Assembly: GCA_030704615.1 (NCBI GenBank)
Contig: CM060731.1
Coordinates: 62,434,001 to 62,498,000, forward strand
Length of the DNA: 64,000 nucleotides
Reading direction: 5' to 3'
From: Takakia lepidozioides
Lineage: Eukaryota > Plantae > Bryophyta
How positions within the stretch are numbered: position 1 is the first letter of the stretch; each line of letters opens with the position of its first letter. Under the pieces are notes generated by a model that saw only the letters and a program-made list of their open reading frames with translations, did no database searches and was not told where the DNA came from. Of this stretch, positions 2,028 through 33,700 are shown in pieces. A program made the position numbers and the translations under genes.

Positions 2028-4529
2028 GCACTCTCACAGAGTGTAGCTGCCAGCCTGAACACCTCAGCCGGTCTTACCCCCGGCGTCGCAATCATGGTAG
2101 CCGAGAACAATGGAGCCTGGCACACAGATGTGGCCACTCCTAGTAGCATACTAGTTGCCGTAGCCTTGGCAACACTAGGTAGTGGTGCTACCCGTGTAAC
2201 TCTCCTCAATGGCATAGTAACCTCCGCCTCGGTAACAGTCGGGCGAGAACTAGGTGCCATGGATGGCGTCGACACTGTCTCTGCCAATGTGAATGACTGA
2301 GGAAGCCTAGCCTGACGGCTTGCCTCCCCACGCTGTGGATCCAACTCCACCTCTGCATCTCGTGGCTCAGGAACTCGTGCTGCTCCTCGAGTCACGGCTG
2401 CAACAGACTCCACCTGCACTAGTGGTAGTGCTGCTCCACACATGAATCCCATGCCTCCCATATCTCCTCCCTCAGGAGCAGGAGGTGGACCATCCGGCCT
2501 TAGAGCCGGTACCACCTGAGCTGTAGCCATGGCAGCGAGCCTCTACTCTAGCTGCTGAAGCCGGTTGGCCATGCCTTGGTCAACCCCCTGACCTCCGCGT
2601 CCTTGGCCATGTTGAGCTTGCCCTTGGCCTGCACCTCGTGGCTGGCCACCTCGTCCTCTCTGGGCTGCTCCACCTCGCCCCCGGCCACCATTGTTCCCTT
2701 GGAACTAGCTTGGGCGCAACTTAGGATGCAAACCATAACACTGGACCTCTCCATGCCCGTGCTTGCCACAATGCCCACACTGCAACTGTGCAGGCTGTGC
2801 ATGTGCCGGCCCTTTGCTTCCCTCTGGGCAATCCTTCTTGACATGGGGTCCTCCACATGTCCAGCACACCACATCCGCCCGTTGTTGGCCAGCAAATGAA
2901 GGGAGAGACCCCTGCATCTGAGGTCCTCTCTGCCCTTCCCTGAGCTTCACCTGAGCCCCCTTGTTGCCTTGAGCACGTTGAGGTAGTGGTTGGCTAGGAG
3001 CACCACTACCCCGTGGTGTCTCCTTAGCAAATCCCACCATGACCACTTGTTTCTCCACCATGTTGAGCTCTATCCGCTCTGCCAGCAAAAACACATTTGC
3101 TAAGGTGGGTTGGGCCGCTTGTAGGAGAGTTTCATCCCGCACCCTTCTCCTCAGCTCCTTGTCCAATATCCCATACCAGAATTGGACTGCCTGAGCTTCC
3201 GAAACCCCTTGGGTTACATTTATCAAGCGCCTCATGCGAGTGAAAGCCTCCCTCAAGCTCTTGGTCGGCTTCCATTGGAACTCTTGCAAGCTCCGCAACT
3301 TTTCTGTCCTCACCCCTTGGTAGTTCCCTCTCAACTCTTCGAAGAACTCCACAATAGGGTTGAAGGCAGGCACGGGTGCTAGTGCTGGTGCGGTAGTGGC
3401 TTGGGTGGACGTCGTAGCTACTGTACCACCAGTCCCACTAGTCCCACTGCTACTTGCTGAAGCTGTCGGTGCAGCGGCAGGTGTAGCCACTGCCCTCGTG
3501 GCTCTAGTGCCCCTAGTGATGAGACATAGTCGGGTGACCAGTACATCCTCCACTCCTCGATCTCAAACTCATGCCCCTGCCTGAACTCATGGTAATCATC
3601 CATAGGCGGCCCCTCAAGGTGCTGAAACAGCCCCTTCCATGCCATGAAAGGCGTAAATAGTTGTGGATTGCGCATTTGCTGCAAATCACACCAACTATCA
3701 AACTCTTGGATAAAATCATCCAACTCGATGGTGCCCACCGCCCCAGAGTACCTTCGTGGCCCCTTGGTAGCTCCATACATCTCCTCCATTGTGTCCCACA
3801 ACAATGGCAAAGAAACAACTTGCACCGCCAGTATGAGTCCTCCTGATTCACAATCCGAATCAGAACCTTCCGTAGAAGACACAGGAGGGCCTAAACCGCA
3901 CACCTCGTCTTGTGTACCCACTAGTATCGCTAGTGCTCGAACCGGCACTGTCCCCAGCAACTAGTGGCACCTCCGTGTTGACACTCAACCGGTCATGAAC
4001 ATGTCCCTAACCCCCTCTCCACAAGGTAACCGGATAGAGAACCTGTTGCGGCTTATGGTTTGGAATACTAAGTTCCTAACATAGCCTACACCTGTACCTG
4101 CATCCACCGCAAGCACTCCTATGGTTGGCTGGTCATCACCTCCAACCTCACCACAGGAGAAACAATGATGGTCTGGCTGGTCATCACCCCAGCCTCACCA
4201 TCGACAGCATGCTCTAGGACTGGCCGGTGATCAAATCCGGACCAATCACCTATAAAAATAGCGCCCACACAAAACTAGCATGGCGCACAGTCAAGCACGC
4301 AGGTATGGAGGGGATCCAAACACAAGAAATTAGAACGACAACTCCCCCACACCAAAAACAACTCCACGGTGTTGCTCCTGCAAGGACACCCCAGCCCAAA
4401 CCCGGACTGACTCTTGCCTCCACCTACAGAAAGGTCTTGGCCTAATGAGAGGGTGGAAACTACGAGGGAGAGAAGCTAAAGCAATGCCTAACCCCAACAT
4501 GCTCTCATCCCAACACTCTTCCTCTCCTC
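2028..4529 (-). mobile_element. Ty3/Gypsy copy A, inverted 5' segment (5' UTR, gag, start of the pol linker), decayed
   Basis: ORFs 3418..3960, 2705..3553 and 2024..2530 are collinear with gag of copy B. Zinc knuckles CWTCGGPHVKKDC and CGHCGKHGHGEVQC. UTR 4090-4440 matches 15355-15705. Confidence 0.9.
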
Positions 4530-7500
4530 AGGTTACTTCATCTTCTGCGGAGATAGTGGGAGGTGTAGTGCCAGAGGGATCCTCGGATTTGAGGGTCAAG
4601 ACTGCCACGGCGGCGCCATGGCAAGCTGCAACTGCCAGGTTGATGGAGCTGCTAGCTAGGCCAGCCATTGAGCGCGCCATGGTGACACCTGGAGTTGTCA
4701 TGTTAGACAACCAGGATGGCATTTTCTGTTTGAGTGGACCGGCAGGCAAGAGGTACCGGCCACTGCGGGTCTTGTTCGACTCGGGAGCTCAGCCATTGAT
4801 GCTAGGCAGAGCTGCTATTGCAGGCTTGGGCCTCACGGAGGCGGATATGGAGCCTTGTCCTTTCCAGATACAGACGTCTCTAGGAGGATTGGAGCAGGCT
4901 CGGGGCATGACACGGCGTGAATTGGCTATTAGACTACGGCCGGCTCACCCTACAGATGGCTCAGTGATGCGAGCCAAGGCCATTGTGACAGACGCGGTCT
5001 CATACGATGTCTTGGTTGGTGGGGCAGTGTTGTACCCCATGGGCTTCACCCTGGATTTTTGGGAGGAGTCAGCTTCCTATAGGCCTGCATGGCAGTCAGG
5101 GGAGGGCCGGCGTGTGCAGCTCCCTGTGACGTTCATAGGAGGAGTTGCGGTTGCCCAGCGAGGCAAGATGCCGACACTAGCAGTATTCAAAGCGGCAGTG
5201 AGTTGGCCTAGAGAGTTGCTTGAGGGCAACGCTCATTCAGAGGATGTCCCACCTCCGGGAGAGCAGGATGACATGTATGGTATGGCGGAGTTGCCTACCA
5301 TGGTTGCTCAAACTCCATTGTGGGGCACGAGCAAGGATTTGCAGCGGGATGCTGATCAACGGGTGCAACAAGCCTGGGTGGAGGCTTTTGTACCGTCAGA
5401 AGAGGAGGAGAGTGCGGGGATTGCACCAGGACCACCTCAGTTGTCTCCATTGGACACCACACCTATTGTATGGCAGTATCCGGATGAAGGCATTTGTCTT
5501 CTGGACTTGTTTGGCGGGATCAGCACCGGATTGGCTGTTGTGTTACAGACATGTGTATGAGTTCGGCGTTACCTGTATGTGGAGAGGGATGAGACTGCAC
5601 GACGCGTTTCACTTCGCCATGTTGCTCAGTTGGTGCAGCGGTACCCTGAGTTGTTGTCGGTGTCTGCAATTCGTGGATATCAGCAGACCTTGCCAACAGA
5701 CATTTCGTTGCTGGGGGCGCAGGATTTGGAGCGGGTTGGCTCCATTGATCTGGTAGTGGCAGGTTGGCCCTGCCAAGGGCATTCATTAGCCGGGCATGGC
5801 AATGGATTGCAAGACTCGAGGTCGGGTCTGTTTTGGGAGATGGTGCGGGTTTTGCGCCACTTACAGCTTCATCAAGCTGTATCTCCAGCATACATCTTGG
5901 AGAATGTGCCACTGATGGGCGATTATCGGGCCAGGGTGATGGCCAGTGTGCATCAAGTCCGGTCATGGCTTGGGTCAGCAGTGTTGCTAGATGCAGCTAC
6001 AGTGGGGTCACGGGCTCATCGTCCACGGCTATGGTGGACTAACTTAATGCCACCCGCACTGCTCAAGCGTGCATTTGATGGGGTACAGCGGCCAGCACAT
6101 CTCACAGTGGATAGCATTCTGGACACAGAAAGGCAGTCTCAGCGTGTGAGACACGATGACCATTCGCCTTTGGCAGTAGTCAACAAGGTGGGTCAACCAC
6201 GAGCAGCATTACCTACACTGCTCAGCTTCCCAGGATCGCATACTTTCCGGGATAGTGGACCTGGCCTCCTGTGGGATGCTCAGTTGCAGCAGTTAGTAGA
6301 GCCTAATGCTGACGAGCATGAGCGGGCAATGGGTTTTACCACTAGTACCACGGCGGTGTCGTCTCTTTTGAGGCATCACATCGTCAAGTGTTGGGGCAAG
6401 CAATGGATCTCAATTGCTTGACCTGGATTATCAGCTTGGCTCTGGCTGAGCAACGCAGAGTGCAGAGTACACTTCCCTCGATGGTCTCTCTGCCTACCGA
6501 GACGGTACAGGCAATGAGTGGGGGCGAGCATGTGAGGACCACGGGGTGCATGCATCCATGGCACACGTGGGAGGAGCTCGAGGTTCAGAGGGAGTTGGCA
6601 GCCAAGGCGGCTGTGATGGATGAGGTTGGGGATTCTTCTCGGGTTGAGGAGGTTCTCATGGATGAGATGATGGGGCAGGATGAGGCCTTGTCATTGACTG
6701 AGCAGGCAGGGAGTACTGCTTAAGAGGTTGCAACATAGCAACCACTGGACGTGTCCTCTACCTCTAAGCCCACTGGACTTAAGGTTTCAGTTACGGAGGA
6801 CAATTGGGAGCCTGACATTGGACCCATTGTCATCGGAGGAGAGAGACGACGTATACGGCGGTTCCTGAGGGTTTACAAGAATTGCTTTGCCTTCAGTTTG
6901 AAGGATTTGGGAGCACTGAAGGGTCAAGAGATCCGTATTGAGTTGGCCACTGACACGCCAATCTTTCGGAGACCCTATAGATACAGTGACATGGAGAGGT
7001 CTTTGATTCAGATGAGGACTCAAGATCTCTGGGAGGCAGGTTTGGTGGAGCTCTCTGGTGGAGAGTATGCTTCAGCCACAGTGATGCCAGCCAAGAAGGA
7101 TATCTATGGCAATTGGACGGAGAGACGTATGTGCGGTGATTACCGGCCTGTAAATCGTCAAACCAAGTCCGACAAGTATGCCATGCCAACACCAGAGGAG
7201 ATCTTTGATGCCATCGGGCATGCTAAGGCCTTTAGCACTTTGGATTTACGATCCGGATATCACCAGTTGCCAATCAAGGAGGCGGACAAGCAGAAGACGA
7301 CATTCTGGGGGATCAATGAGCACGGCAAGGATTGCCTATATCAGTGGCGGTTCTTACCATTTGGGCTTAAGAATGCTCCAGCAGAGTTTTCAGAGAGTCA
7401 TGGATAGGATTCTAGCAGGGGTGGACTTTGCTTGGTGCTACATAGATGACATCATCATCTTTAGTGTTACGATGGAGGAGCATGAGAGACACCTTCAGGT

Positions 7501-8268
7501 AGTATTGGAGCGCTTGAGAGCGCATGGATTGGGGGTACAGCAGACTAAGGTAGAGGCCATTGCACAAATTCCACGCCCCACGGATGTGAGCCGAGTTCGA
7601 GCTTTCATGGGGTTGGCAAACTATTATAGACGGTTTGTCAAGGGATTTAGGACCATTGCAAAGGCTCTAACCAAGTTGACCAAGGTGGACCAGGAGTGGC
7701 AGTGGGAAGATGAGCAGGAACGAGCTTTTCAAGAGCTCAAGGCGAGGTTGACCTCGGCGCCTATCCTGAGACGACCTATCAGGGGGCGTCCCTTTCAGCT
7801 GCATACGAATTGGAGCATGCTGGGGCTTGGAGCGGTGCTCACACAGGTGGATGATGAGGGAAGAGAGTTCGTAGTGGCTTATGCTAGCCGCTCGAACAAC
7901 GCTGCAGAGGCTAAGTACAGCTCATATGAGGGAGAGTGCTTAGCTGCAGTGTGGGCCGTGGCACACTTCAGGTGCTATCTATACGACAATCTTTTCACCC
8001 TTGTCACGGATCACCAGCCACTCAAGTGGTTGATGGAGTCAGACAAGCTTATGGGGAAGCTTGCACGGTGGGCACTCATACTCTAGGAGTATGACTTTCA
8101 GGTTGTGCATCGACCAGGTTTGGTCAATTGGGATGCGGATGGATTGAGTCGCAATCCATGCATGAGCCAGCAGGATGACACTGGAGCTCGGTGGCATGGT
8201 GAGACGGACGAGGAGATGGTGCCGAGATGGCACGCATCTGCATTTTTGTGTATCTTGGCATCGGGAGG
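4530..8268 (+). mobile_element. Ty3/Gypsy copy A, pol segment (PR-DNMT-RT-RNase H), decayed and truncated before integrase
   Basis: Protease LFDSGAQ; DNMT motifs DLFGG/GWPCQ/ENV; RT MCGDYR, LDLRSGYHQ, PFGLKNAP, YIDD; RNase H YEGECLA, TDHQPL. Stops at 5558, 6721, 6736 and 8084 plus frameshifts. Confidence 0.95.
5492..6430 (+). pseudogene. C5-cytosine DNA methyltransferase domain within copy A (stop at 5558, frameshift near 6365)
   Basis: ICLLDLFGGISTG, DLVVAGWPCQGHS, YILENV, AHRPRLWWTNL, EHERAMGF, LGQAMDLN. Confidence 0.9.
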
Positions 8269-8272
8269 TTAA

Positions 8273-8332
8273 CCAATCCCCATCCGGAACCATCTCAAGA
8301 GGTGGAGTCAAGCATCCCATATGCCAACCTCT
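8273..8332 (-). other. C-terminal half of a PHD finger directly downstream of the integrase (remnant after deletion)
   Basis: RGWHMGCLTPPLEMVPDGDW in ORF 8039..8353 matches the PHD pattern (F/W)HxxCLxPPLxxxPxGxW. Confidence 0.75.
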
Positions 8333-8333
8333 A

Positions 8334-9400
8334 CCCACCACGTATGGTAGCATACCTCAACGTATCACGGTGGTGTGCAATGGCAAGGTTCTCAAAAGCC
8401 ATTGGCATGACTTTCTTGAACAACTCTGCACGTTGCTCATATGCACGTGCCCACATATCCGGATCGTCAAGGTTAAGAACTGTAGCAGCTTCTCTGCGAA
8501 TGGATGTAGGCAAATCCGGCTCTCGGCCAAAGAGAAGAAAGTATGGTGAGAAGGAGGCAAGTGATGCTTGCTTGCTGAACCTGTAGCCCATGGCTAACCA
8601 GGGTAACTGAAGGTCCCAATCTCCTAGGTGTCCCTTCTGCAAGCCATACTTGCGCAAATCCCTCTTTACTGTCTGAACAACTCTCTCTGCCAAGCCATCG
8701 GTCTCAGGATGATCCCGAGAAGTGGTGCGGTGGTCTATCAAGGCCTTGTCACACAAAGCCTGAAACTCCCCCAAGAACTCTCTCCCTTGGTCCGTGAGTA
8801 CCTCAGCTGGAGCACCGAATCGGCTAAGCACACAATCCAAGAATGCATACGCAGCTCCCTCACTAGCTTTATCAGGCAATGGAACCAATTCAATCCACTT
8901 GGAGAAGTGCTCCACCATCACCAACACGTACTTGTTGTGGCACATGGTCAGTGGCAACGGCCCTGCGAAGTCAAGACTCCACCTGTAGCCCAATCCCATG
9001 ATCGAAAGAGGGTGCAATTGTGGAGTAGGGGCGTTGAATGAAGCACGCACCCTGTCACACACCATGCACCTAACCACAAATTGTTGCACCTCTGTGTGCA
9101 TACCACGCCACCAATACTGCCCCTGCAGTAGACTATGAGTGCGTCGCACCCCAAAATGCCCCAATTCCTCATGGGCATGCCGCACTAATCGTGCCCGCTG
9201 TGTTGGGTGAGGCACAATCCTCACTTGACCATCCTCCCACACTCGGAGTAGGTGTGTCCCCTCCCACTTGAACCTCTTGGTTCGTTGTAGGATCCGATCC
9301 CTCTCCTTGGCAGTCACAGTGGCTGCAGTGTCTCCAGTGCGGAGGTAGTCCAACACAACTGAATCCTCATGTATATCTTTGGCGCCACCTTGCTCATTGC
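8334..9400 (-). CDS. Integrase of copy B (HHCC zinc domain + DDE core), C-terminus deleted
   Basis: HEELGH...CMVC; WSLDFAG / LTDQGREF / GLAERVVQ. Confidence 0.93.
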
Positions 9401-9579
9401 TGGCCTCAGGGTCCTCAGACACTTGATCTACAGTCATCCCTGTTGCAGGTCCAACCTGGCCTTCCGCTGCCAAGATACACAAAAATGCAGATGCATGCCA
9501 TCCGGGCACCATCTCCTCGTCCGTCTCACCATGCCACCGAGCTCCAGTGTCATCCTGCTGGCTCGTGCATGGATTGCGA

Positions 9580-10951
9580 CTCAACCCATCTGCATTGCGA
9601 TTGACCAAACCCGGTCGATGCACCACCAGAAAGTCATACTCTTGAAGGATGAGTGCCTACCATGCAAGCTTCCCCGTAAGCTTGTCTGACTCCATCAACC
9701 ACTTGAGTGGTTGGTGATCCGTGACAAGGGTGAAGAGATTGCCGTATAGATAGCACCTGAAGTGTGCCACGGCCCACACTACAGCTAAGCATTCTCCCTC
9801 ATATGAGCTATACTTAGACTCAACAATATTGTTCGAGCGGCTAGCGTAAGCCATTACGAACTCTCTTCCCTCATCATCCACCTGTGTGAGCACCGCTCCA
9901 AGCCCCAACATGCTCCAATCTGTATGCAGCTGAAAAGAACGCCCCCTGATAGGTCGTCTCAAGATGGGCGCCGAGGTCAACCTCGCCTTGAGCTCTTGAA
10001 AAGCTTGTTCTTGCTCATCTTCCCACTGCCACTCTTGGTCCACCTTGGTCAGCTTGGTTAGAGCCTTTGCAATGGCACTAAATCCCTTAACAAACCGTCT
10101 GTAATAGTTTGCTAACCCCATGAAAGCTCGAACTCGGCTCACATCCGTGGGGCGTGGAACCTGTGCAATGGACTCTATCTTCGTTTGCTGTACCCCCAAT
10201 CCTCCAGGATATATCATGTGACCCAGATACTCAATCTGGTTGTGGAAAAACTTGCACTTGCCCGGATGTAACTTCAATCCGTGCGTCCTCAAGCGCTCAA
10301 ATACCCCCTGAAGGTGTCTCTCATGCTCCTCCACCATAGCACTAAAGATGATGATGTCATCTATGTAGCACCGAGCAAACTCCACCCCTGCTAGAATCCT
10401 GTCCATGACTCTTTGAAACTCAGCGGGAGCGTTTTTAAGCCCAAATGGTAAGAACCGCCACTGGTATAAGCAATCCTTCCCGTGCTCATTGATCCCCCAG
10501 AATGCCGTCTTTGCTTATCCGCCTCTTTGATCGGCAACTGGTGATATCCGGATCGTAAATCCAACGTGCTAAAGACCTTGGAATGCCCAATGGCATCAAA
10601 GATCTCCTCTGGTGTCGGCATGGCATACCTATCGGACTTGGTCTGACGATTTACAGGCCGGTAATCACCGCACATACGTCTCTCCGTCCAATTGCCATAG
10701 ACATCCTTCTTGGCTGGCATCGCTGTGGCTGAAGCATACTCTCCACCAGAGAGCTCCACCAAACCTGCCTCCCAAAGATCCTGAGTTCTCATCTGAATCA
10801 AGGACCTCTCCATGTCACTGTATCTATAGGGTCTCCGAAAGATTGGCGTGTCAGTAGCCAATTCAATGCGAATCTCTTGACCCTTCAGTGCTCCCAAGTC
10901 CTTCAAACTGAAGGCAAAGCAATTCCTGTAAGCCCTCAGGAACCGCCGCAT
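9580..10951 (-). pseudogene. Reverse transcriptase + RNase H of copy B (frameshift near 10510, stop at 9657)
   Basis: MCGDYRPVN, LDLRSGYHQ, YIDD, KCKF, YLGH; RNase H TDWS, EGECLA, TDHQPL, NADGLSR. Confidence 0.95.
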
Positions 10952-11293
10952 ACGTCGTCTCTCTCCTCCGGTGACAATGGGTCCAATGTCAGGCTGTCAA
11001 TTGTCCTCCGTAACTGAAACCTTAAGTCCAGTGGGCTTAGAGGTAGAGGACGCGTCCCGTGGTTGCTATGCTGCAACCTCTTGAGCAGTACTCCCTTCTT
11101 GCTCAGTCAATGACAAGGCCTCATCCTGCCCCATCATCTCATCATTGAGAACCTCCTCAACCCGAGAAGAATCCCCAACCTCATCCATCACAGCTGCCTT
11201 GGCTGCCAACTCCCTCTGGACCTCGAGCACCTCCCACGTGTGCCATGGATGTCTACACCCCGTGGTCCTCACCGGCTCGCCCCCACTCGCTGC

Positions 11294-13777
11294 CTATACC
11301 GTCTCGGTAGGCAGAGAGACCATGAAGGGGAGTGCACTCCGCACTCTACGTTGCTCAGCCATAGCCAAGCTGATAATCCAGGTCAAGCAATTGAGATCCA
11401 TTGCTTGCCCCAACACCTGACGCCGTGATGCCTCAGAAAGAGAAGGCACCGCCGTGGTCCCAGTGGAAAACCCCATAGCCCACTCTCGCTCGTCGGCATT
11501 AGGCTCCACTAACTGCTGCAACTGAGCATCCCACAGGAGGCCAGGTCCACCATCCCGAAAAGCATGGGATCCTGGGAAGCTGAGCACTGTAGGTAATGCT
11601 GCTCGTGGTTGACCCACCCTGTTGACCACTGCTAAAGGCAAACGGTCATCGTGTCTCACACGTTGAGACTGCCTTCCTGTGTCCAAAATGCCATCCACGG
11701 TGAGGTGTGCTGGCCGCTGCACCCCATCAAATGCACGCTTGAGTAGTGCGGGTGGCATCAAGTTAGTCCACCAAAGCCGTGGACGATGAGCCCGTGACCC
11801 CACTGCAGCTGCATCCAGCAACACTGCTGATCCAAGCCACGACCAGACTTGATGCACACTGGCCATCACCCGGACCCGAGAATCACCCATCAGTGGCACA
11901 TTCTCCAAGATGTATGCTGGAGATACAGCTTGATGAAGCTGCAAGTAGCGCAAAATCCGCACCATCTCCCAAAACAAACCCGTCCTCGAGTCTCGTAATC
12001 CATTGCCATGCCCGGCTGATGAATGCCCTTGGCAGGGCCAACCTGCCACTACCAGATCAATGGAGCCAACCTGCTCCAAATCCTGCGCCCCCAGCAAGGA
12101 AATGTCTGCTGGCAAGGCTTGTTGGTATCCACGAACTGCAGACACTGGCAACAAGTCAGGGTATTGCTGTACCAACTGAGCAACATGGCGCAGTGAGACG
12201 CGTCGTGCAGTCTCATCCCTCTCCACATACAGGTAACGTTGAACTCGTTCACCTGCCTGCAGCACTGCAGCCAATCCAGTGCTGATCCCGCCAAACAAGT
12301 CCAAAAGGCATATGCCTTTATCCGGGCACTGCCACACAAGAGGTGTGGTGTCCAATGGCGACAACTGGGGTGGTCCTGGTGCAATCACCGCACTCTCCTC
12401 CTCTCTTGACGGTACGAAAGCTTCTACCCAAGCTTGTTGCACCCGTCCATCAGCAGCCTTCTGCAAATCCTTGCTCGTACCCCACAATGGAGTGTGAGCA
12501 ACCATGGCAGGCAACTCCGCCATACCATGCATGTCATCCTGCTTTGCTGGAGGTGGCACATCCTTTGCATGGGCATTGCCCTCCAGCAATTCTCCAGGCC
12601 AACTAACTGCAGCTGTAAAGGCGGCTAGTGTTGGCATCTTGCCCCGCTGGGCAGCCACTATACCCCCAATGAATGTCACAGGGAGCTGTGCACGGCGATC
12701 ATCGCCTGACTGCCATCCAGGCCTGTAGGATGTTGACTCCTCCCAAAAGTCCAGGGTGAAGCCCATGAGATATAACACTGCCCCACCAACGAGGACATCG
12801 TAAGAGATCGCGTCTGTCACAATGGCCTTGGCTCGCATCACTGAGCCATCTCTAGGATGATCCGGCTGCAGTCTAATTGCCAATTGATGCCGTGTCATGC
12901 CCCGAGCCTGCTCTGACCCTCCCAGAGATGTCTGTATCTGGAAAGGACAAGGCTCCATATCCGCCTCCATGAGGCCCAAACCTGCAATAGCAGCTCTGCC
13001 CAACATCAGTGGCTGAGCTCCCGAGTCCAACAAGACCCGCAGTGGCCGGTACTTCTTGCCTACCGGTCCACTCAAAGTGAAAATGCCTCCCTGGTTGTCT
13101 AACAAGACAACTCCAGGTGTCACCATGGCGCGCTCAAAGGCTGGCCTAGCTGGCAGCTCCGTCAACCTGGCAGCTGCAGCTTGCCATGGCGCAGCCATGG
13201 CAGTCTTGACCCTCAAATCCGAGGATCCCTCTGCCACTATACCTTCCACTAACTCCGCAGAAGATGAAGTGACCTCCCCACTCTCACAGAGTGTTGCTGC
13301 TAGTCTGAACACTGCAGCTGGTCTTACCCCCGGCGTCGCAATCATGGTTGCTGAGAACACTGGGGCTTGATACACAGAGGTGGCTGCCCCCAATAACATA
13401 CTGGCTGCACTAGCCTTGGTAGCAGGTGTCAGTGCTGCACGTGTAGCTCTCCCCAATGGCATAGTAACCTTCGCCTCGGTAACAGTCGGGCGAGAACTAG
13501 GTGCCATGGATGGCGTCGACACAGTCTCCGCCAATGTGAATGACTGAGGAAGCCTCGCCTGACAGCATGCCTCCCCACGCTGTGGATCCAATTCCACCTC
13601 TGCACCTCGTGGCTCAGGAACTCGTGCTGCTCCTCGAGTCATGGCTGCAGCAGACTCCACCTGCACTAGTGGTAGTGCTGCTCCGCACATGAATCCCATG
13701 CCTCCCATATCTCCTCCCTCAGGCGTAGGAGGTGGACCATCCCGCCTGGGAGCTGGTACCGCCTGAGCTGTAGCCAT
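11294..13777 (-). CDS. Uninterrupted 827 aa protease + C5-cytosine methyltransferase segment of the copy B polyprotein (DNMT domain ~11376-12313)
   Basis: Aspartic protease VLLDSGAQ...YDVLVG. C5-MTase motifs I (LLDLFGGISTG), II (YVERD), III (ADI), IV (GWPCQ, catalytic Cys at 12032-12034), V (DSRTGLFWE), VI (ENV), VIII (AHRPRLWW), IX (EREWAMGF), X (LGQAM). Confidence 0.92.
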   Translation of the reverse strand: MATAQAVPAPRRDGPPPTPEGGDMGGMGFMCGAALPLVQVESAAAMTRGAARVPEPRGAEVELDPQRGEACCQARLPQSFTLAETVSTPSMAPSSRPTVTEAKVTMPLGRATRAALTPATKASAASMLLGAATSVYQAPVFSATMIATPGVRPAAVFRLAATLCESGEVTSSSAELVEGIVAEGSSDLRVKTAMAAPWQAAAARLTELPARPAFERAMVTPGVVLLDNQGGIFTLSGPVGKKYRPLRVLLDSGAQPLMLGRAAIAGLGLMEADMEPCPFQIQTSLGGSEQARGMTRHQLAIRLQPDHPRDGSVMRAKAIVTDAISYDVLVGGAVLYLMGFTLDFWEESTSYRPGWQSGDDRRAQLPVTFIGGIVAAQRGKMPTLAAFTAAVSWPGELLEGNAHAKDVPPPAKQDDMHGMAELPAMVAHTPLWGTSKDLQKAADGRVQQAWVEAFVPSREEESAVIAPGPPQLSPLDTTPLVWQCPDKGICLLDLFGGISTGLAAVLQAGERVQRYLYVERDETARRVSLRHVAQLVQQYPDLLPVSAVRGYQQALPADISLLGAQDLEQVGSIDLVVAGWPCQGHSSAGHGNGLRDSRTGLFWEMVRILRYLQLHQAVSPAYILENVPLMGDSRVRVMASVHQVWSWLGSAVLLDAAAVGSRAHRPRLWWTNLMPPALLKRAFDGVQRPAHLTVDGILDTGRQSQRVRHDDRLPLAVVNRVGQPRAALPTVLSFPGSHAFRDGGPGLLWDAQLQQLVEPNADEREWAMGFSTGTTAVPSLSEASRRQVLGQAMDLNCLTWIISLAMAEQRRVRSALPFMVSLPTETV

Positions 13778-13792
13778 GGCAGCGAGCCTCTA

Positions 13793-15085
13793 CTCTAGCT
13801 GCTGAAGCCGGTTGGCCATGCCTTGGTCAACACCCTGACCTCCGCGTCCTTGGCCATGTTGAGCTTGCCCTTGGCCTGCACCTCGTGCCCGACCACCTTG
13901 TCCTCTCTAGGCTGGTCCACCTCGCCCCTGGCCACCATTGTTCCCTTGGAACTGGCTTGGGCGCAACTCAGGATGCAAGTCATAACACTGGGCATCTCCA
14001 TGCCCATACTTGCCACAATGCCCACACTGCAACTGTGCAGGCTGTGCTTGTGCCGGCCTTTTGCCACTCTCTGGGCAATCTCTCTTGACATGGGGTCCTC
14101 CACATGTCCAACATATCACCCCTGGTTGCTGTTGGCCTGCAAAAGATGCCACGGGCCTCTACACCTGAGGTCCCCTGTAAGCTCCATGGAACTTGGGTTG
14201 GGAAACCTTGCCCCCCTGACCACGCTGTTGGGCAGTCCCTTGTGCCTGTGGGCTGGCAGCTGCGTCTCGTGCAGGCATGTCTTTGCCAAATCCAATGGTA
14301 ACAACTCGCTCCTCCACTATGTTGAGCTCAATCCGCTCAGCCAGCAGAAACACATCTGCTAATGTGGGTTGGGCTGCTTGTAACAGGGTTGCATCCCGCA
14401 CCCTTCTCCTGAGCTCCTTGTCCAAAATTCCATACCAGAACTGGATTGCCTGAGCTTTAGTAACCCCTTGGGTCACACTTATCAAGCGCCTCATACGAGT
14501 GTACGCCTCTCGCAGGCTCTCATTGGGTTTGCGCTGGAAGTCTTGCAAACTTCGCAGCTTCTCTGTCCGTACACCTTGGTAGTTCCTCCGCAACTCCTGG
14601 AAGAACTCCACCACCGGGTTGAATCTAGGCACATGTGTTGTAGTTGTGGCAGGAGGAGTAGTAGCACCTTTTGAACTGGTACCACCTGCAGAAGTACCGG
14701 CACTACTTGTTCCACTACTAGTGCTGGCAGTGGGAGATATTGGTACTGATGCAGCTACTGATCGCGTCGTGCCTCGAGTAATGGAGACATAGTCAGGTGA
14801 CCAATACATCCTCCACTCCTCAATCTCTGCTTCATGTCCTCGCCCGAACTCGTGGTAATCGTCCATAGGCGGGCCTTCCAAATGCTGGAACAGTCCCTTC
14901 CACGCCATGAATGGGGTGAATAGCTGTGGATTGCGCATCTGCTGCAAATCACACCAGCTGTCGAACTCCTGGATAAAGTCATCCAACTTGATTGTGCCCA
15001 CAGCTCCAGAGTACCTACGAGGCCCCTTGGTAGCTCCATACATTTCCTCCATGTCGTCCCACAACAATGGCGAATGAAACTGCAC
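13793..15085 (-). pseudogene. gag: gag of copy B (capsid-like region plus two CCHC zinc knuckles); frameshift near 14155 and stop at 13907
   Basis: LDDFIQEFDSWC capsid-like block; CWTCGGPHVKRDC and CGHCGKYGHGDAQC; RGG-rich tail. Confidence 0.85.
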
Positions 15086-23442: not shown

Positions 23443-23629
23443 TCGACCACATAACTTGCAGTGTTACATGCCCAATGGCAACTGCGACTACGGAAGTCGG
23501 AGCAACCACTGCTTTACTACTTCAAATGAAGTGCTCGAAATTACTTGAACAATCATTCATAGTGGTTCATGCTTTGCAGTTTTGGTGTTTTTAGTGAGCC
23601 GACTAGTATGACATTACGACATATTGAGA

Positions 23630-26600
23630 TGTATATTGCATTCTGTAAGGTAGCTCGTTGGGTGGATTTGTGGTGGTTTGGAATGACTATGACAAGTCAC
23701 TGCCAATGTGGCAACAGGAAAGTATCCAAAACAGATAACAGAGATGAGGAGAAGGTGTGGAATGAATTTTTGTTGACCTCGGTGAATGGTGGGACAACCC
23801 AGGCAAAAAGTTGAATGCCTATTAGATGACAGAGAGTATCAGACGCAATTCAGCATATGAACTAGTGTGATTGGGTGTTTCCTAGGTTGTCATTGTCAGC
23901 TGCTAGCAGCAAGGGCAAAGATGAAGGAAGGATTTGTGCAGAGGCATGGATAGCTGAAGGAGAAGGGATAGAGTGTGGGTCCAAATTCATCCAAGAGGGC
24001 CGGACTTCAAGCTCCAGATTACCTGTGATTCCATGTGGATCAATAGCTACAAGAAACCTAAATGGGTAGATGGCCAACTAAAAGCAGCAGCTGCAGCGGC
24101 ACAGTTGATAAAATTGGGCACCTCAACCATGACAGCAGCTTCTCAAAGAGGATCTAAAGAGGGAGTCCACAATGCCTCTTCTGCGGGGCTTGTGAAGATG
24201 CTTTGTGAGGCAGGCAGACTGACAAAGGCTCTATAGACTTTAAACCAATGAGACATTTCAGCAGATTCAGATATGTATGTTTGTCTCTTGCTTAAGTGCA
24301 AGGTCTGGAAGCTGGAATCAGGTGCACCCTCACATTATCCAAAGTGGATTCATGCCAAATGTTTTTTCTACTCAACAGCCTTGTCAACTTACTTAGTGCG
24401 AGAGCATCATGGATGCTCGCTAGTCTTTTTCTACAGAATGCCTTAGCGATCTTTGAGCACGTGGAATATAATGTTGGCAGGATTTACCAAGCATGGGTGT
24501 GGTAGGAATGCTTTGGAGACCTATGAACAAATGCTGCGCAAAAGGGTGAAGCCCAACCACATCACGCTTGCGCATGTTTGCAATGCGTGTGCAAGCCTGG
24601 GACCTCTGGAGAAGGGAAAGTGGTCCATGGTGACATCGTCAAAGCTGGAATTGTACCAGATGTCATCCTGAACACTGCCCTGGTGGACGTCTATGCCAAA
24701 TGTAGGTGCATTAAGGATGCGAAGGGAGTTTTCAACACTATGGTTGAACCAAATGTGGTGTCATGGAACGCGATGCTTGCAGGGCATGCACAGCAGGGAC
24801 ATGGTATGGAGGCTTTGGAGACCTATGATCAAATGATGGGGAAAGGGGGGCACCTTCTTCAATAGCACAGCAACTATAAGTGGGTAGATGGTCAACTGGA
24901 AACAGCAACGGCAGCAGCACAATTGATAGAACAAGGCCCACTGCTAATGAATGTACCTTCTTTAACATATTTCACCTTGTTTTCCCTTGCTATCAGTGTC
25001 GTCCCTAAATTTTCATGTTGAATTCTGCAAGTTAGCTCGTTGGTGGATCTATGGTGGTGTTGGAGTGATTTTGACATGTTACTGCCAATGTGGTCCACAG
25101 GAAAGTATCGAAAAACAGATAACAAAGATGTGGAGAAGCTCTGGAATGAATACGTCTCCAACCCAGTCAATGGTGGAACAATCCAGGCAAAAAGGTGAAT
25201 GTTGTTGGTGCAAGCCAGTATAGGAACTAGTGCGGTAAGTAGGGTTGCCCGTGTTTGCTGGAACAATTCTAGGGTATTATTGTCGGCTGCTAGCGTCAAG
25301 GCAAGGATGTATGCATGATTTGTGCAGAGGCATGGATAGCTGAAGGAGCAGGGAGCAGTGTGGGTCCAGATTCATCCAAGAGGGCCGGATTTCAAGCTCT
25401 AGATCACCTACAATTCCTGTGGAAGCAGTACATACGTCACACACACAAGAGGTCCTCTTGTGTGCATGGTCAGTCAAATCCTCCATGTGTCATGACAGAA
25501 GGTCGAGAACAATGTCGCACCTTCTTCTTCGATCTATTTCAGCCTATTTTGCCCTCTCATCAGACTCAACTTTTAATTTATTGAATGCTGTAAGTTAGCC
25601 CGTTGGGTGGATCTGGGGTGGTTTGGAGTGACTTTGACAAGTTACTGCTGATGCGGTAGCAAGAAAGTACCCAAAAACAGATAACAAGATGAAGAGAAGC
25701 TTTGGAATGAACACTTTTCTGATCCCAGTCAGTGGGGGGACAATGGAGACAAAAAGGTGAGTGCTTGACCGACTACAGAGAAAAGCAGTTGCAATTCAGA
25801 ATTGGAACTACAGTTAAGTAGGGTTGGGGTGTTTTCTGGAAGAACTTCACGCTGTCAGTGTCAGCTGCTAGCAACAAGGCTGAGAGATGTATTCATGATC
25901 TGTACACAAGCAGGGATAGCTGAGGGACCAAGGATAGAGGTCCAGATTCATGTTCAGGCTCAGGCTGAGGGATCAATAGCTACAAGAAATCAGCTGGAGT
26001 AGATGAGTCAATTGTTGCAAGTGGAAACAGTAGTGCTACTATCACAATTGATAGAATGAGGTATTGCTAATGAAGGCACCTTCCTCAACACATTTCAGCC
26101 TGTTTTTCCAAGTAGGGTTGGGGTGTTTGCTAGAACAAATCTAGGCTGTCATTGTCAGCTGCTAGCAGCAAGGCAATGATGTATGCAGAGGCATGGATAG
26201 TTGAAGGAGCAGGGATAGTGTGTGGGTGCAGATTCACCCAAGAGGGCTGGGCTTCAAGCTCCAGATTGACTCTGTAGCTACAAGAAACCTGCATGGGTAG
26301 ATGGTCAATTGGCAGCAGCGGCACAATTAATAAAATCAAACAGTGCTAATGAAGGTATCTTCTTCAACACATTTCACCTTGTTTTCCCTCTTATCAGAAT
26401 CGCCCTAAATTTCCATGTTGAATTCTGCAAATTAGCTGCTTGAGTGAATCTAGTTTGGAATGACTTTGACAAAATACTGCCAATGTGACAACAGGAAAGT
26501 ATCAAAAAACAAGTAACAGAGATGAGGAGAAGCTGTGGAATGAATACTTTTCTGCCCCAATCAATGATGGGACAACCGAGGCAAAAAGGTGAATGCCTGT

Positions 26601-26870
26601 TACATTTCAGATAGTAGCAGACACAATTCAGCATAGGAACTAGTGTGATAAGCTAAGTTGGGTGTTTCCTACAACAAATCTAGGCTGTCATTGTCAGCTC
26701 CTAGCAGCAAGGCAAGGATGAATGCTTGATTTGTGCAGAGGCATGGATAGCTGAAGGAGCAGGGATAGAGTGTGGGTGCAGATTCATCCAGAGGGCCAAA
26801 TTTCAAGCACAAGATTACCTATGATTCCATGTGGATCAATGGCTACAAGAAACCTCCATGGGTAGATGGT
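23630..26870. repeat. Array of ~4-5 diverged copies of a ~570 bp unit, interrupted by a PPR fragment
   Basis: Blocks such as 'caggaaagtatc-aaaacagataaca', 'gtcattgtcagctgctagcagcaaggc', 'gcagaggcatggatagctgaaggag' and 'tgggtagatggtc' recur (e.g. ~24063, 24881, 26293, 26859). Confidence 0.85.
24075..24850 (+). pseudogene. PLS-class PPR gene fragment (N-terminus plus about one PLS triplet)
   Basis: VKMLCEAGRL, TWNIMLAGF, NTALVDVYAKCRCIKDAKGVF, VSWNAMLAG; stops and frameshifts. Confidence 0.85.
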
Positions 26871-27080
26871 CTATTCCGTGGAGCTCAATCTGTCACTGAA
26901 GTCTTGCATTATGAGGATCACAACTACTTCGCAGCTTACTTGCATGAGGCCTTAACTCTTACGCAATCCCCAGAGCAGTAGTAGCTTTTGGGCTGCTTTT
27001 TTACTTTGGTTTTTTCATTTTGTCCCATAAGCTCTTTGAGCTTTCCGCAGATGTAATAAAGTACCATTTTGTTTCATTTT
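26868..27080 (+). mobile_element. 5'-truncated copy of the (CATTT)n-tailed LINE family
   Basis: GLFRGAQSVTEVLHYEDHNYFAAYLHEALTL* then cccataagctc..gagctttccgc..ataaagtaccattt. Confidence 0.75.
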
Positions 27081-27289
27081 GTTTCATGGCATGTCTTCCA
27101 TCGTTTTCGCATTTCAAATGCATGATTAGTTCTCTTGTATGGCATTGAGAGGGCAAAACAGGCTGAAATAGGTCGAAGAAGAAGGTGCCCTTACCACATT
27201 GTCCTTGACAATTCAATATGCATCTCAGGGCCAAGTCTGGTGAGAGGGAAAAACAGGCTGAAATCGAAGAAGAAGGTGCCCTCACCACA

Positions 27290-28112
27290 TTCTCCAAGGC
27301 CTCCATACCACGCCCCTGATGTGCACACCCTACAAGCATCATGTTCCACGTGATGAATGATCGTTGAGGCATTCTGTTGAACACTTGGTGAGCATCCATG
27401 ATGCACCCGCACATAACATACATGTTGAGTAGAAAAATATTTGGCGTGCACTTTGGATACTGTGAGTGTGCACCTGCTTTAGCTTCAAGGCCTTTCATCT
27501 TGATGCACTTATGCAAGAGACAGACATACGTATCTGAATCTGCTGAAATGCCTCCTTGGTTTAAAGTCAGTAGAGCCTCTTTCAGTCTGCCTGCCTCACA
27601 AAGCATCTTCACATGCCCATAAGTGCCAGAAGAGGCATTGTGGACTCCCTCTCTTGATCCTCTTCCAGAAGCTGTGGTCATGGTTGAGGTGCCGGATTTT
27701 ATCAACTCTGCCGCTGCAGCTGCTGCCTTTGGCGATGCAACCATGCACCTCTTTGCATCTGGTAATCTGACAGGCATTCACCTTGGTTAATTCCAGCTCT
27801 GAAGATGTCGCCATGGACCTCTTTCCCCTTTTCCAAAGCTGCCAGGGCAGTGTTCAGATTGACATTTGGTACAATTCCGGCTTTGATGATATCCCCATGC
27901 ACCTCTTTGCCCTTCTCCAGGGCTGCCAGGCTTGCACAAGCATGGCAAATGCACACAAACATGATGTGCTTCCCCCATCATTTGCTCATAGGTCCAAAGC
28001 CTCCATCCCACGTCCCTGCCGTGCATACCCTGCAAGCATCGCCTTCCACGACACCACATCTCGTTCAGCCATAGTGTCGAACACTCCCTTTGCATCCTAG
28101 ATGCACCCTGAT
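27290..28112 (-). pseudogene. PLS-class PPR fragments, inverted and permuted paralog of 24075-24850
   Basis: KAAAAAAELIKSGTSTMT...VKMLCEAGRLKEAL...ADSDTYVCLL; ACASLAALEKGKEVHGDIIKAG with a local duplication. Confidence 0.85.
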
Positions 28113-29442: not shown

Positions 29443-30603
29443 CTTTGCAGAACGGTTGGCCGTCCAGGAGCAATCACAAGCTACCTAGACGACAAACAAT
29501 TCACATGCAAAGGGCTGGCTTGCGGCTGGCCACTTTCAACTTCTCAGGGTTGACCAACCAAAGGAAACAACTCGAAGTGGGACAAGTTCTTCGGACTAAT
29601 GATATTCATATCTGTGCTGGGCAAGAAACATGGGAAACGTCGGATAAACTGGTTGGAGATGTCAATGGTTATAAATGGGCAGGTAAGATGTGTACTCTCA
29701 AGGCAGTCTCTGCCAAACGCGGTCAAAAAGGGGTTGGATTCTTTGTCCGTGATTTCTTGTTTGACAATTGTGAAATTATCAACAAGGGTACGAGCATAGT
29801 ATCTGGCTAAAACTGAATCTGAAGGGCAGCATGAGTACAAAGGACCTCTTTGTGGGTTGTGTTTACATGCCCACAGAGGGGACCTTAGTGCTGACGCAGA
29901 CAAAGCCTTCGAAGATGTAAAGCTGGACTGTGCTTCGTTCCTTGCCAAAGGTCAGGTGGTACTATTGGGGGACTTCAATGCCCGGGTGGGCAAAGGGATC
30001 CATCAGGACGATATCATTGGACCTTTTGGTGAGGACGAGCTGAATTCTAATGGCAGACGGTTAATTAACTGTCTAGAAGAGCTTCAGCTTTTGACCTTGA
30101 ATAACAGGACAAGAGGTGACCAAGTGCAGTGGACTCGTGAGAAATCCCAAACTGGGGAACGTTCCATTGTGGACTATATCATAATGGACAAAATTTTGTT
30201 CCCCCAGTGTGCCAATGTGTTGATCGACAGAACTGATATTGGTACCTCTGACCACTTCCTGGTTTGGACTGAGATCAAAAGGTGTTTTCCCACCACCAAG
30301 AGATCTGTGAAACGTTCGATTCGGAAGTGGCGCATAGAAAAATTCCACAATGAGGAGGTCAAGGCTGAGTACGTCCAGGCCTTGCAAGAGGCTCTCCCTC
30401 ATTTTGTCCAATCGCTCCAAGAACTTCAGTCACGCTCTGTTAACGCAAGAAATGAAGTCGAAAGAGCAGTGGACTCTTCAGAGAGTTTCGTTTCCTCCGC
30501 GGCTGACAAGATCATTGGGAGGAAACTAATTGTCTGCGGTAGAGCAGTTAATTGGTGGACCAATGCGATTAAACTCAAGATAGCTGAGAGACGAGCCCTC
30601 TAT

Positions 30604-30784
30604 AAATGAAATGAAATGGTGCTTTATAACGTCCGCGGAAAGCTCGTAGAGCTTATGGGACGAAATGGAAGAAAACATGAGAGAGGAACAAATCCAGAAA
30701 CCACAATTAATGTTCTAGCGATTGTCTAAGGGTGAAGGCCTCGTGTAGGTAGGTTGCCACGCATTTTTGATCCTCATAGTGAAA
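30604..30784 (-). mobile_element. 5'-truncated copy of a second LINE family with a (CATTT)n tail, nested in the full-length LINE
   Basis: Minus strand reads FHYEDQKCVATYLHEAFTLRQSLEH* then ...cgttataaagcac(cattt)n; it interrupts ORF2 after ALYK. Confidence 0.8.
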
Positions 30785-33700
30785 GACATCAGTGAGAGTG
30801 CTGCAATTTGGAAACCAACAGAGAATTGTGGGCGAGGTACTACCAGCTCCGTAAAGATATCAATCAGCTTGTTAGGTCTCAGAAGAAATTATACTGGGAC
30901 AAGTTATACAGTGAAATAAACTCAAACCACCATGGTGGTAATGACAAGAAATTCTGGTTGGCCCTTCAACGTTTGTACAAGCCGAAAAACGGTCAGCAAG
31001 TACAAGCGCTGAAGACTACTAAAGGTGCAGTGGTGACTTCATCGGTTGACATTGTCAAAACCTTTGAAACTCACTACAGTATCCTTGGCAGAACTTCTAG
31101 GTCTAACAGTGAGGGGTCTTCTGCTGAATGGAGGGACACAGTTGGAAAAACTGTTCCTATGATTCAAAACAGCCCTGATGAACTGGAGTATATTTCAATG
31201 GCTTATAATGCTCCCATTAGTTCTTCTGAGATTGTGGAAGCAATTGAACATTTAAATGGAAATAAAGCTGGTGGACCTGATGGTATTGTCAACGAGCTTA
31301 TCAAGCACGGTGGCGATCCCATGATAGCGGCCCTAGTTCTCCTCTTTAACCTTATCTGGAAGACTGAAATGATCCCCTTTCGCTGGCGACAGGGGGTCAT
31401 TGTCAATCTATACAAGAAGGGTGACAGAGAAGAACCGGGGAACTACCGTGGCATCACGCTCCTCAATGCTGTTGGCAAGACATTCTGCAGAGTTATAAGT
31501 ACTCGTCTCGAGGTTGATCTGGAGTCTAGAGGTTGATTCCACGAAGGCCAAGCTGGCTTTCGGCGAAACAGGGGCTGTGTGGATCATATCTTCACTCTAA
31601 GCCAGATTATCCAGGGAAGGAAAAAAGAAGGGAAACCCACTTATGTTTTTTTCCTGGATGTCAAAAAGGCTTATGACACAGTGTGGAGAGATGGCCTATG
31701 GTTCCGCCTCTGGTCTTGTGGGATCAAGGGAAAGATGTGGAGAGTTGTCCACAACTTGTATGCTCACACCAAAAGCTGTGTCACTGTTAACGGACAGAAG
31801 TCCAACTTCTTTGACATAGACCAAGGTGTAGCTCAAGGATGTACTCTCTCCCCTCTGCTCTTCAATGTTTTCATCAATCAACTCCTCGAGGATGTGGAAA
31901 GTGAGGGATTTGGGTTAAGGGTGGGTGATACCACCATACCAGCCCTTATGTTTGCGGATGACTTCGCAGGCATAGGGGAGACTCCAACCAATCTCCAGGA
32001 GTTGATTGATTGCGTGAAGAGATACTTTGATCTTTGGGGGCTAGAGGCTAATGTCAGCAAATGTGCAGTGGTAGCATTCAACGACAGAGGAGAGGGAGGA
32101 AGTGATCTTAAGTGGCAGTGGGGTAGCCAAGAGATCCCGGTCCTCCCTTCCTACACTTACCTGGGCGTTGAGTTTTCCTCCAATTGTAATTGGGATGCAC
32201 ATATCCGGAAAGTTGTTCAAACTGGCAAGGGCAAAGCTCTGGGGCTCACTAAATTTTTCCACTGCAGAGGGGTCAACTCTGAGGTTAAGAAAACCATGCT
32301 TTGTCGCGTTATTAGACCTGCCTTGGAGTACGGATCTGCTATATGGGTGATAACTCCAACCAGGCTAAGTCTCTAGAATCCATTCAAGTGGGGGTGCTTA
32401 AGGAGTGTATGTCAGCATGCTCCAAAACAGCCAATGTGGCTGTTCGGGGTGAGTTTGGCATTCCGTCCTTAAGCTCCCGACGAGATGAATTCAAGGTCAG
32501 ATGGTGGGGTCAGCTGCAACATATGCCCAACACCAGATATCCTAAGTTAATCGACTCTATATCTTGGAAACAGGACCGCCCTGTCAAACAGGCCAAGTCC
32601 TGGCAGAAGAGAGTAGAAGAGATTCTGAAGGACCTGGACCTGGATCCGCAAGCCTTGACCCTGCTGGATAAATCTGACTTAGAGGCTGTAGTGTCCTCAG
32701 CCATGTCTGTTGCCATGAGATTGTCTGATGAAAATGAAGTTAGGCAGAAAACTTCCCTGAACTTGTTTCCAGTCAGTGACATGGGGGAGGACATCTTGGA
32801 TGACCTCAAGGGTCTACCCACTCTCGGCACTAGACTGAAATTTAAACTCAGGGCAGGAAGCCTACCTTTGAACAGCAAACAGAAGCAGAGAGGAAAGGGA
32901 GAGTGCAATTGCCCGCTGTGTGGGCAATCTGAAGACAGTATTCACTTTCTGATACACTGTCCGGGGTTCTCTCACCAAAGAGACGCTCTCTTCAACTCTA
33001 TCAAGGGAATTGTGCCTGTTCCCCTGTTTAACAATTTTGAAAGTCTCGAGGCTGAGCCAAAAGCCCAGGCCCTCCTGAGGCCTAGTTTTTGGGCAAATCA
33101 CACACAGCAGATTGATGCTTGTGTGAAGGGATTTCTAGAGGATATCTGGAAAACCCGGATTAATTCTATATATGATGGTAAGTCACACTACCAACGTCAG
33201 CCCCTGACAGAGGTAGGTTCTGTCCCTTTTGTTCCCGCTCAAACTGGGCGCGGGGTCAATGGCCACAAGGCTACGGCAAACAACGTCTTATGAGTACAAT
33301 CTCTCTCTCTGCCTGTGACACTGGGCTTGGGGTCTATGGCCACAAGGCTGCTGCAATCACCATCTTGTGATGACATTCTCTCTCTCCAGGTGTGTTGTTC
33401 CTGGACTGGGTGCGGGACAAAGAACACGTACCTGCATGGTTACGAGTCTGTCTTCCACTTGCACTTCTGTCGTCAAAAAATCGGCACCGATCTTCGCCTT
33501 ATACTGGTTGCTGAATTTCTTATTTACATATCTGAGAAAATCTTGTCAAGGACGGCATTACAACCACATCCCGCAAGCAGAAGGAACTTTCAAAACATAA
33601 TACGTATAATCTAGCCTCATCTGAAAATATTCACACTCCAACCAAGCCCCTGCAACAGCAACTCAGAGAGTAGATACTGGTTCATCAACGATGTCTTCCC

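Follow-up and report, generated by a model that had tools for sequence, protein, structure and literature searches.

A conserved in-frame stop in a tobamovirus-type readthrough context, probably programmed, separates the methyltransferase and reverse transcriptase frames of bryophyte-associated Ty3/Gypsy retrotransposons

The in-frame TAG-CAA-CCA found in retrotransposon copies of Takakia lepidozioides is a real and conserved stop that divides a Gag-protease (PR)-DNMT3 frame from a reverse transcriptase (RT)-RNase H (RH)-integrase (INT) frame. Judging from sequence comparisons, it is very probably a programmed type I (tobamovirus-type) readthrough site that rations RT-RH-INT. The stretch analyzed here (64,000 nucleotides, hereafter the window) holds two copies, A and B, in which Pfam and motif matches placed Gag, protease, C5 methyltransferase (DNMT), linker, RT, RNase H, and integrase in that order, which includes the order GAG-PROT-RT-RH-INT typical of Ty3/Gypsy. 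The sequence TAGCAACCA sits at 6736-6744 of the plus strand in copy A and at 11068-11060 of the minus strand in copy B, and in both copies the upstream DNMT linker and the downstream RT share its frame, as the preliminary description had it. The base at position -1 of the stop is A in the window copies. The features to which we refer are the following:

11060..11068, minus strand: boundary stop TAG (11068-11066) and hexamer CAACCA (11065-11060), copy B
6736..6744, plus strand: boundary stop TAG and CAACCA, copy A; no variation at the 1% level among family contigs
11069..15052, minus strand: ORF1 of copy B (Gag, zinc knuckle region, protease, DNMT3-like domain, linker); 1328 codons in one frame
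12730..13060, minus strand: aspartic protease region of copy B, limits approximate; LDSGA motif at 13030, position homologous to the Pfam Asp_protease match in protein P0017
11370..12320, minus strand: DNMT3-like C5 methyltransferase of copy B, with LDLFGG (12304), PCQ (12040), ENV (11908), and RxR (11794)
11069..11370, minus strand: linker from the DNMT end to the stop, copy B; 114 codons from the GQAMD motif
8331..11059, minus strand: RT, RNase H, and integrase of copy B, with stops and frameshifts; cut off at 8331
4530..6735, plus strand: protease, DNMT, and linker of copy A, with a one-base deletion near 6368 and private stops
6745..8268, plus strand: RT and RNase H of copy A, frameshifted; truncated at 8268
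2029..4430, minus strand: copy of the gag region, in inverted orientation with respect to A's pol part; overall identity to B about 79%

All copies in the window are broken, and no terminal repeats were found in these truncated copies. ORF1 of copy B runs from the Gag start at 15052 to the boundary stop without a frameshift and contains four other stops (14161, 13909, 13792, and 11296); copy B itself gave no Pfam protease match. Together with its relatives, this ORF places Gag in the frame upstream of the stop, where the preliminary description had put it in parentheses. The gag copy runs opposite to A's pol part (4530-8268) and breaks where that part begins, and its identity to B ranges from 66 to 96% in patches, against 91% for pol. 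Copies A and B are both truncated at 8268-8331, where they abut tail to tail, and a GC-rich tandem array with units of roughly 31 and 51 bases (1212-1890) adjoins the gag copy. The window also holds a broken LINE-like element with endonuclease and RT Pfam matches (29800-33293, plus strand), intronless PPR-E-DYW and PPR-E genes (34892-36925, minus strand, and 56452-58929, plus strand), and fragments with degenerate PPR repeats (23600-28100).

Over 3737 aligned bases, the pol parts of A and B show 91.4% identity. At this similarity the two copies would be expected to have the triplet in common, and the window alone cannot decide what the stop is. A second TAG common to two copies illustrates this point. 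It is found on the minus strand at 13792 (copy B) and 2545 (gag copy), in the linker between Gag and protease and within a tract of 96% identity, and relatives have a sense codon there in 18 of 18 loci and 21 of 21 motif-matching proteins. This stop is read as decay, with gene conversion possible in the 96% tract. Decay can therefore account for a stop common to two copies, and the second TAG serves as an internal negative control. With the two copies this similar and another common stop attributed to decay, the sharing between copies on which the preliminary description had relied is not a sufficient argument.

Contigs of four runs (X1, X5, X7, and X10) were placed on copy A, with variants considered from 1%. 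In X1 (287 contigs, summed depth about 310,000-420,000), no variant of at least 1% fell within 6736-6744, and the neighbouring positions 6732 and 6733 varied at 1.4% and 5.9%; contigs drop rare variants, and X1 may be the source sample. X5, X7, and X10 had no change at the nine bases, X10 being a second organism (50 differences in 501 bases). We infer that variants were listed for sites about 31 or more bases from the ends of a stretch, which includes all nine bases. The private stop of copy A at 6721-6723 was absent from 99.7% of the X1 depth. Depth of X1 at the site was about 336,000-464,000 versus 800,000-1,250,000 in most other bins (roughly a third to half), and the count of a diverged subfamily could therefore be too low; in two loose ends of diverged pieces at the site, TAG is still present. 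X7, guessed to be RNA but possibly DNA, spans 6500-7000 in one piece with no joint, and we count this neither in favour of splicing nor against it. TAG-CAA-CCA is fixed in the window family.

Searching with a DNMT alignment yielded 71 metagenome loci, 55 with the DNMT-end anchor and 48 reaching the boundary. Removal of four near-identical repeats left 44, and the addition of L044-L046 (apparently one locus) gave 45 distinct loci; the 20 unscored ones were truncated or rearranged, had the DNMT before integrase (L059, L060, and L062), or were the distant L065. The boundary codon was TAG in 33 loci, TAA in 11, and TAC in one, so that a stop is present in 44 of 45. A family consensus of CAG, which the preliminary description had named as the outcome that would speak against readthrough, has no counterpart here: CAG or CAA occurred in none of the 45, and the window family is fixed for TAG.

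These loci fall, with the window family, into seven families, four of which are represented by one degenerate locus each. Five families (that of the window and four others) have an exact CARYYA after the stop and two are one base off. The hexamer is CAACCA in the window, L014, and L031, CAACTA in L017, CAGTTA in L043, and CAATCA in L044-L046, whereas TAGCCA in L042 is one transition off CARYYA. Among them the second codon after the stop encodes Pro, Leu, Leu, or Ser, that is, all four YYA codons are used, which points to selection on nucleotides or RNA and not on the peptide. As background, CARYYA accounted for 17 of 6619 hexamers near the boundary and followed 50 of 21779 stop triplets in the related loci. 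Linkers of the six families compared share 15-35% protein identity and 18-47% identity at four-fold sites; synonymous sites between families are near-saturated and the linkers are poorly alignable. Their lengths are 99, 113, 114, 130, 136, and 147 codons, and at each of these lengths DNMT and RT remain in a common frame (L031 breaks off short of RT proper). Linker dN/dS was near 1 in both pairs tested (0.82 and 0.99, from few changes). Thus two hallmarks of a type I site were found, namely UAG plus CARYYA in frame with a downstream coding region and conservation at the nucleotide rather than the protein level. The hexamer varies almost only within CARYYA across the seven families, which supports the earlier proposal of an expression boundary after the DNMT at TAG-CARYYA.

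The largest family (L001; 39 distinct loci) has CAACCC in 34 of 39 loci, a mismatch to CARYYA at the sixth base, and an ATG directly after CAA CCC in 37 of 39. It may have a weaker or different signal, or depend on reinitiation. Its boundary codon is TAA in 10 of the 39 loci, with G-to-A changes at other sites of that context reaching 0.26 (mean 0.06); being at the top of this range, the TAA is read as decay.

A near-intact copy keeps the stop, and predicted proteins end at the boundary. In L014, the 1300 codons upstream contain a single other stop; TAG CAACCA comes next and is followed by 766 open codons to the contig end, with the first Met at codon 48 past the stop, within the conserved start of RT. 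Five uninterrupted Gag-PR-DNMT proteins from Marchantia (1278-1281 aa, protein records alone), in which PCQ and ENV are present, end 97 residues after GQAMD, and proteins from Sphagnum and Calypogeia (the latter known here from protein alone) end at +99. Named homologs were retrieved from Marchantia, Calypogeia, Riccia, and Sphagnum and, like the PPR-DYW gene of the window, mark the host as a land plant; searches of viral and prokaryotic genome collections returned no relatives. Among 118 anchor-bearing proteins, five NCBI models join DNMT to RT, each through a different junction that skips the boundary, and one (P0138) has Trp at the boundary site. Two PR-DNMT proteins (P0169 and P0170, 48-49% identical to the query and known as proteins only) group with the stop clade and extend 172-187 residues beyond the DNMT. 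Editing of the stop in the RNA was set aside as an explanation. U-to-C RNA editing is organellar, and ORF1 of Marchantia ends at the same place though Marchantia is not known to edit its RNA.

Phylogenetic trees grouped the stop-bearing families into one clade (support of 99/98 for DNMT and of 100/98 and 100/100 for RT), and the stop-bearing elements are a bryophyte-associated Ty3/Gypsy clade. The DNMT continues into RT without a stop in eight proteins (P0017, P0018, and six out of the 143 new representatives), of which three are Closterium gene models, and all eight fell outside the stop clade in a quick tree. In many more distant elements the DNMT is located between RNase H and integrase, and 40 of the 143 representatives show this RT/RH-DNMT-INT order. 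The same second architecture, with a C-terminal PHD finger, was observed in L059, L060, L062, and P0019-P0027, and the DNMT-Gypsy polyprotein P0022 ends in a peptidase S26-like Pfam match after the PHD finger (E 1e-10). In L065, with a DNMT of about 33% identity, an open DNMT frame leads to an in-frame TAG, then G plus a GC-rich hairpin (z -3.3, 2 of 200 shuffles; boundary region 848-920), downstream of which are 1194 open codons encoding RT-RH-INT-PHD. P0028 (3049 aa, 52% identical to L065) ends at the same place. L065 may represent a second signal class, UAG-G plus hairpin, at the DNMT/RT boundary, seen at one locus; one origin with losses or two origins would both fit the trees. Related elements have split direct repeats (A..B-A-B) instead of ordinary paired LTRs, a DIRS-type pattern found in the integrase-encoding Gypsy locus L056 (1423-1764 and 9985-10552), with partial matches in L002, L009, and L028. 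The use of identical LTRs to recognize young copies, as in the preliminary description, therefore does not carry over in that form. Troyka, considered as a split-repeat Gypsy group, was rejected, since it is an animal LTR lineage.

The best PDB sequence match of the window DNMT was DNMT3A (E 4e-9), followed by DNMT3B, DRM2, and M.HhaI. A DNMT3-like catalytic domain with the key motifs thus lies inside the polyprotein, as in Gypsy-DNMT3 elements. For the DNMT, dN/dS was 0.31 between A and B and 0.99 at the DNMT end of L014/L017; for RT downstream of the stop it was 0.17 and 0.14, indicating purifying selection. DNMT and RT are in the same frame and not in the same ORF, and the fixed stop between them leads us to file the element as a variant of the Gypsy-DNMT3 type.

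Folding suggested a 3' RNA stem whose arms were placed as follows:

11036..11059, minus strand: predicted 5' arm, pyrimidine-rich, copy B; prediction only
10946..10972, minus strand: predicted 3' arm, purine-rich, over the G-G-E-R-R codons, copy B; prediction only
6745..6768, plus strand: predicted 5' arm, copy A, from folding
6832..6858, plus strand: predicted 3' arm, copy A, from folding

The predicted pairing joins a pyrimidine tract (about +7 to +30) to purine-rich G-x-E-R-R codons some 85-120 nt past the stop and was obtained for four of the five families; in L043 folding gave no such stem. Folding z-scores of single sequences were weak (-0.4 to -2.0), and the value against synonymous shuffles, about -1.4, is within the range of control windows. 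The pairing of arms from the same family ranked first among 120 permutations, and reached rank 7 or better in 53 of 60 choices of window and representative, with 1 of 86 control window pairs ranking first. Since the windows were picked after seeing the folds, the stem is a lead; we nonetheless lean towards a co-varying stem after the stop as the model predicts it.

Under programmed readthrough, most ribosomes would stop and yield a Gag-PR-DNMT polyprotein of about 1300 residues, and the remaining minority would read UAG by means of a near-cognate tRNA (for the TMV context in plants, one that inserts Tyr; PMC2754532), giving Gag-PR-DNMT-RT-RH-INT. The predicted stem, starting about 8-15 nt after the stop, may help. 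The longer product would fuse RT-RH-INT to Gag and thereby allow their packaging, while the DNMT might be released by proteolysis, packaged, and methylate the cDNA, a role for packaged DNMT that has also been proposed for DIRS elements (PMC5890265). Single-ORF relatives likewise have DNMT and Gag at 1:1, and the effect of the stop would therefore be on the amount of RT-RH-INT, which it would lower; the DNMT may be an abundant particle component, as first suggested. A wider reading is possible but doubtful. It holds that DNMT-Gypsy elements of land-plant lineages place their main expression switch after the DNMT, with a distant lineage (L065 and P0028) using UAG-G plus a hairpin, because each particle would need far more DNMT3 than RT and integrase, for example for full methylation of the cDNA before integration; in plants, CARYYA and a long-range stem would together make up the signal.

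Other explanations place the expression of RT elsewhere. If the stop were bypassed by splicing, being a 3' splice site or intronic, one would recall that Ogre has an intron that lies after GAG-PROT and before RT-RH-INT (PMC6317226), that TAG fits YAG, that a U-rich run precedes the stop in the L001 family, and that the five NCBI gene models join DNMT to RT across it. However, the junctions of these models differ from one another, as expected from prediction that avoids stops; splicing requires neither the frame kept by linkers of six lengths nor YYA at +4 to +6; and only 5 T are present in the 24 nt upstream of the stop in the window family. We consider it highly unlikely. RT-RH-INT could instead be made separately, at least in some families, through an internal promoter like the one reported in the Tca2 gag-pol junction (PMC2194720) or through reinitiation at a nearby ATG, for which the L001 family (37 of 39 loci) and the Met five codons after the stop in L042 and L043 provide candidates. 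On the other hand, the first Met is at codon 39 in B, 85 in A, and 48 in L014 and L017, past the conserved W-E-P at codons 17-24, so that in the window family and L014 reinitiation cannot give the conserved RT start. It also leaves CARYYA unexplained and may hold for the L001 family only; overall, separate production is quite unlikely.

Alternatively, stop-bearing copies might be non-autonomous suppliers of Gag-PR-DNMT that obtain RT from rare open-frame masters, Gln-Pro being a protease cleavage site. Open-frame relatives do exist, contigs drop rare variants, and P0138 has Trp at the site, but the open forms lie outside the clade, RT after the stop is under purifying selection, and the second residue changes among Pro, Leu, and Ser while the DNA stays YYA. 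The chance of such a two-component system appears very slim. Recurrent or inherited deamination of CAG to TAG has in its favour that CAG sites differ by C/T at 15 of 122 positions between A and B and that the other common stop (13792/2545) is read as decay. It is refuted by the family contigs and the boundary codons of related loci, CAG being absent from the 45 loci, the seven families, the near-intact copy, and the family contigs of two organisms, and its probability is practically nil. Programmed readthrough thus remains the preferred reading.

If it is true, programmed recoding would occur throughout this clade, with a plant RNA-virus signal, at an unusual place in the polyprotein, after the protease and a captured epigenetic enzyme. 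The role of retrotransposon DNMTs is an open question (PMC5890265), and the predicted ratio of DNMT to RT/INT, which can be measured and altered, would provide a handle on it; Marchantia, a model plant, has uninterrupted copies of ORF1. The results extend DNMT-carrying retrotransposons into liverworts and Sphagnum. PMC6338049 describes them as absent from "land plants, such as tracheophytes", and a 2026 preprint (10.64898/2026.05.21.726589) places them in "streptophytes" and no finer. Annotation takes the stop for damage, with gene models that end there or splice around it. In the accessible portions of the full-text literature searched, including PMC5890265, PMC6338049, PMC12344493, PMC6317226, and 10.64898/2026.05.21.726589, no mention of readthrough at a stop in retrotransposons that carry a DNMT was found, a scope to which subscription papers, the SIRE1 paper, Repbase, and the gag-pol recoding survey of Gao 2003 do not belong.

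With regard to viral systems, UAG-CAR-YYA is the type I signal of the tobamovirus replicase and of the coat protein extension of benyviruses and pomoviruses (PMC3159437, PMC2754532). It directs readthrough in plants, the TMV context giving 32% in a dual reporter and about 20% at the protein level, with Tyr inserted (PMC2754532), and 3' structures often stimulate the process (PMC3159437). The site described here shares UAG, C at +1, and CARYYA, and has A at -1 in the window copies. Unlike the viral signals, it belongs to a nuclear retrotransposon, its commonest second codon is CCA where the viral consensus is CAA-UYA, and a long-range 3' stem, which tobamoviruses lack, is predicted.

Among plant LTR retroelements, SIRE1 reportedly has a readthrough hexamer resembling CARYYA, and the preliminary description had cited Sireviruses as a precedent on this ground. 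Suppression of an in-frame stop at the pol/env boundary is known for SIRE1 (PMC2829016; also PMC2194720), which is called an atypical Sirevirus in PMC2829016. SIRE1 differs from the present elements in being Ty1/copia, with a stop located after pol that governs an env-like ORF and not RT-RH-INT. In-frame stops that ration enzymes relative to Gag are also found in MuLV, with UAG plus a pseudoknot at gag/pol, and in Tj1 and Tca2 (PMC2194720, PMC4600332); removing the gag/pol stop of Tj1 abolished transposition (PMC4600332). In all three the boundary directly follows Gag, whereas here protease and methyltransferase are upstream and the signal is of type I. Ogre resembles our elements in the position of the boundary, with GAG-PROT separated from RT-RH-INT, but has a partially spliced intron of roughly 274 bp and no DNMT (PMC6317226); here the frames are one codon apart and the linker is open in frame, with no intron of a few hundred bases between the ORFs.

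The closest known element, compared by description, is KnitGypsy-Dnmt3 of Klebsormidium nitens (de Mendoza 2018, PMC5890265), with which the present elements share the Ty3/Gypsy pol domains, an intronless DNMT3-like domain under purifying selection, and DIRS-like split direct repeats, here in the related locus L056. On the one hand, its DNMT is described as belonging to a single ORF with RT and RNase H. On the other hand, in the elements described here a conserved stop lies between DNMT and RT, a difference that likewise follows from the published description and not from its sequence, and the hosts include liverworts and Sphagnum.
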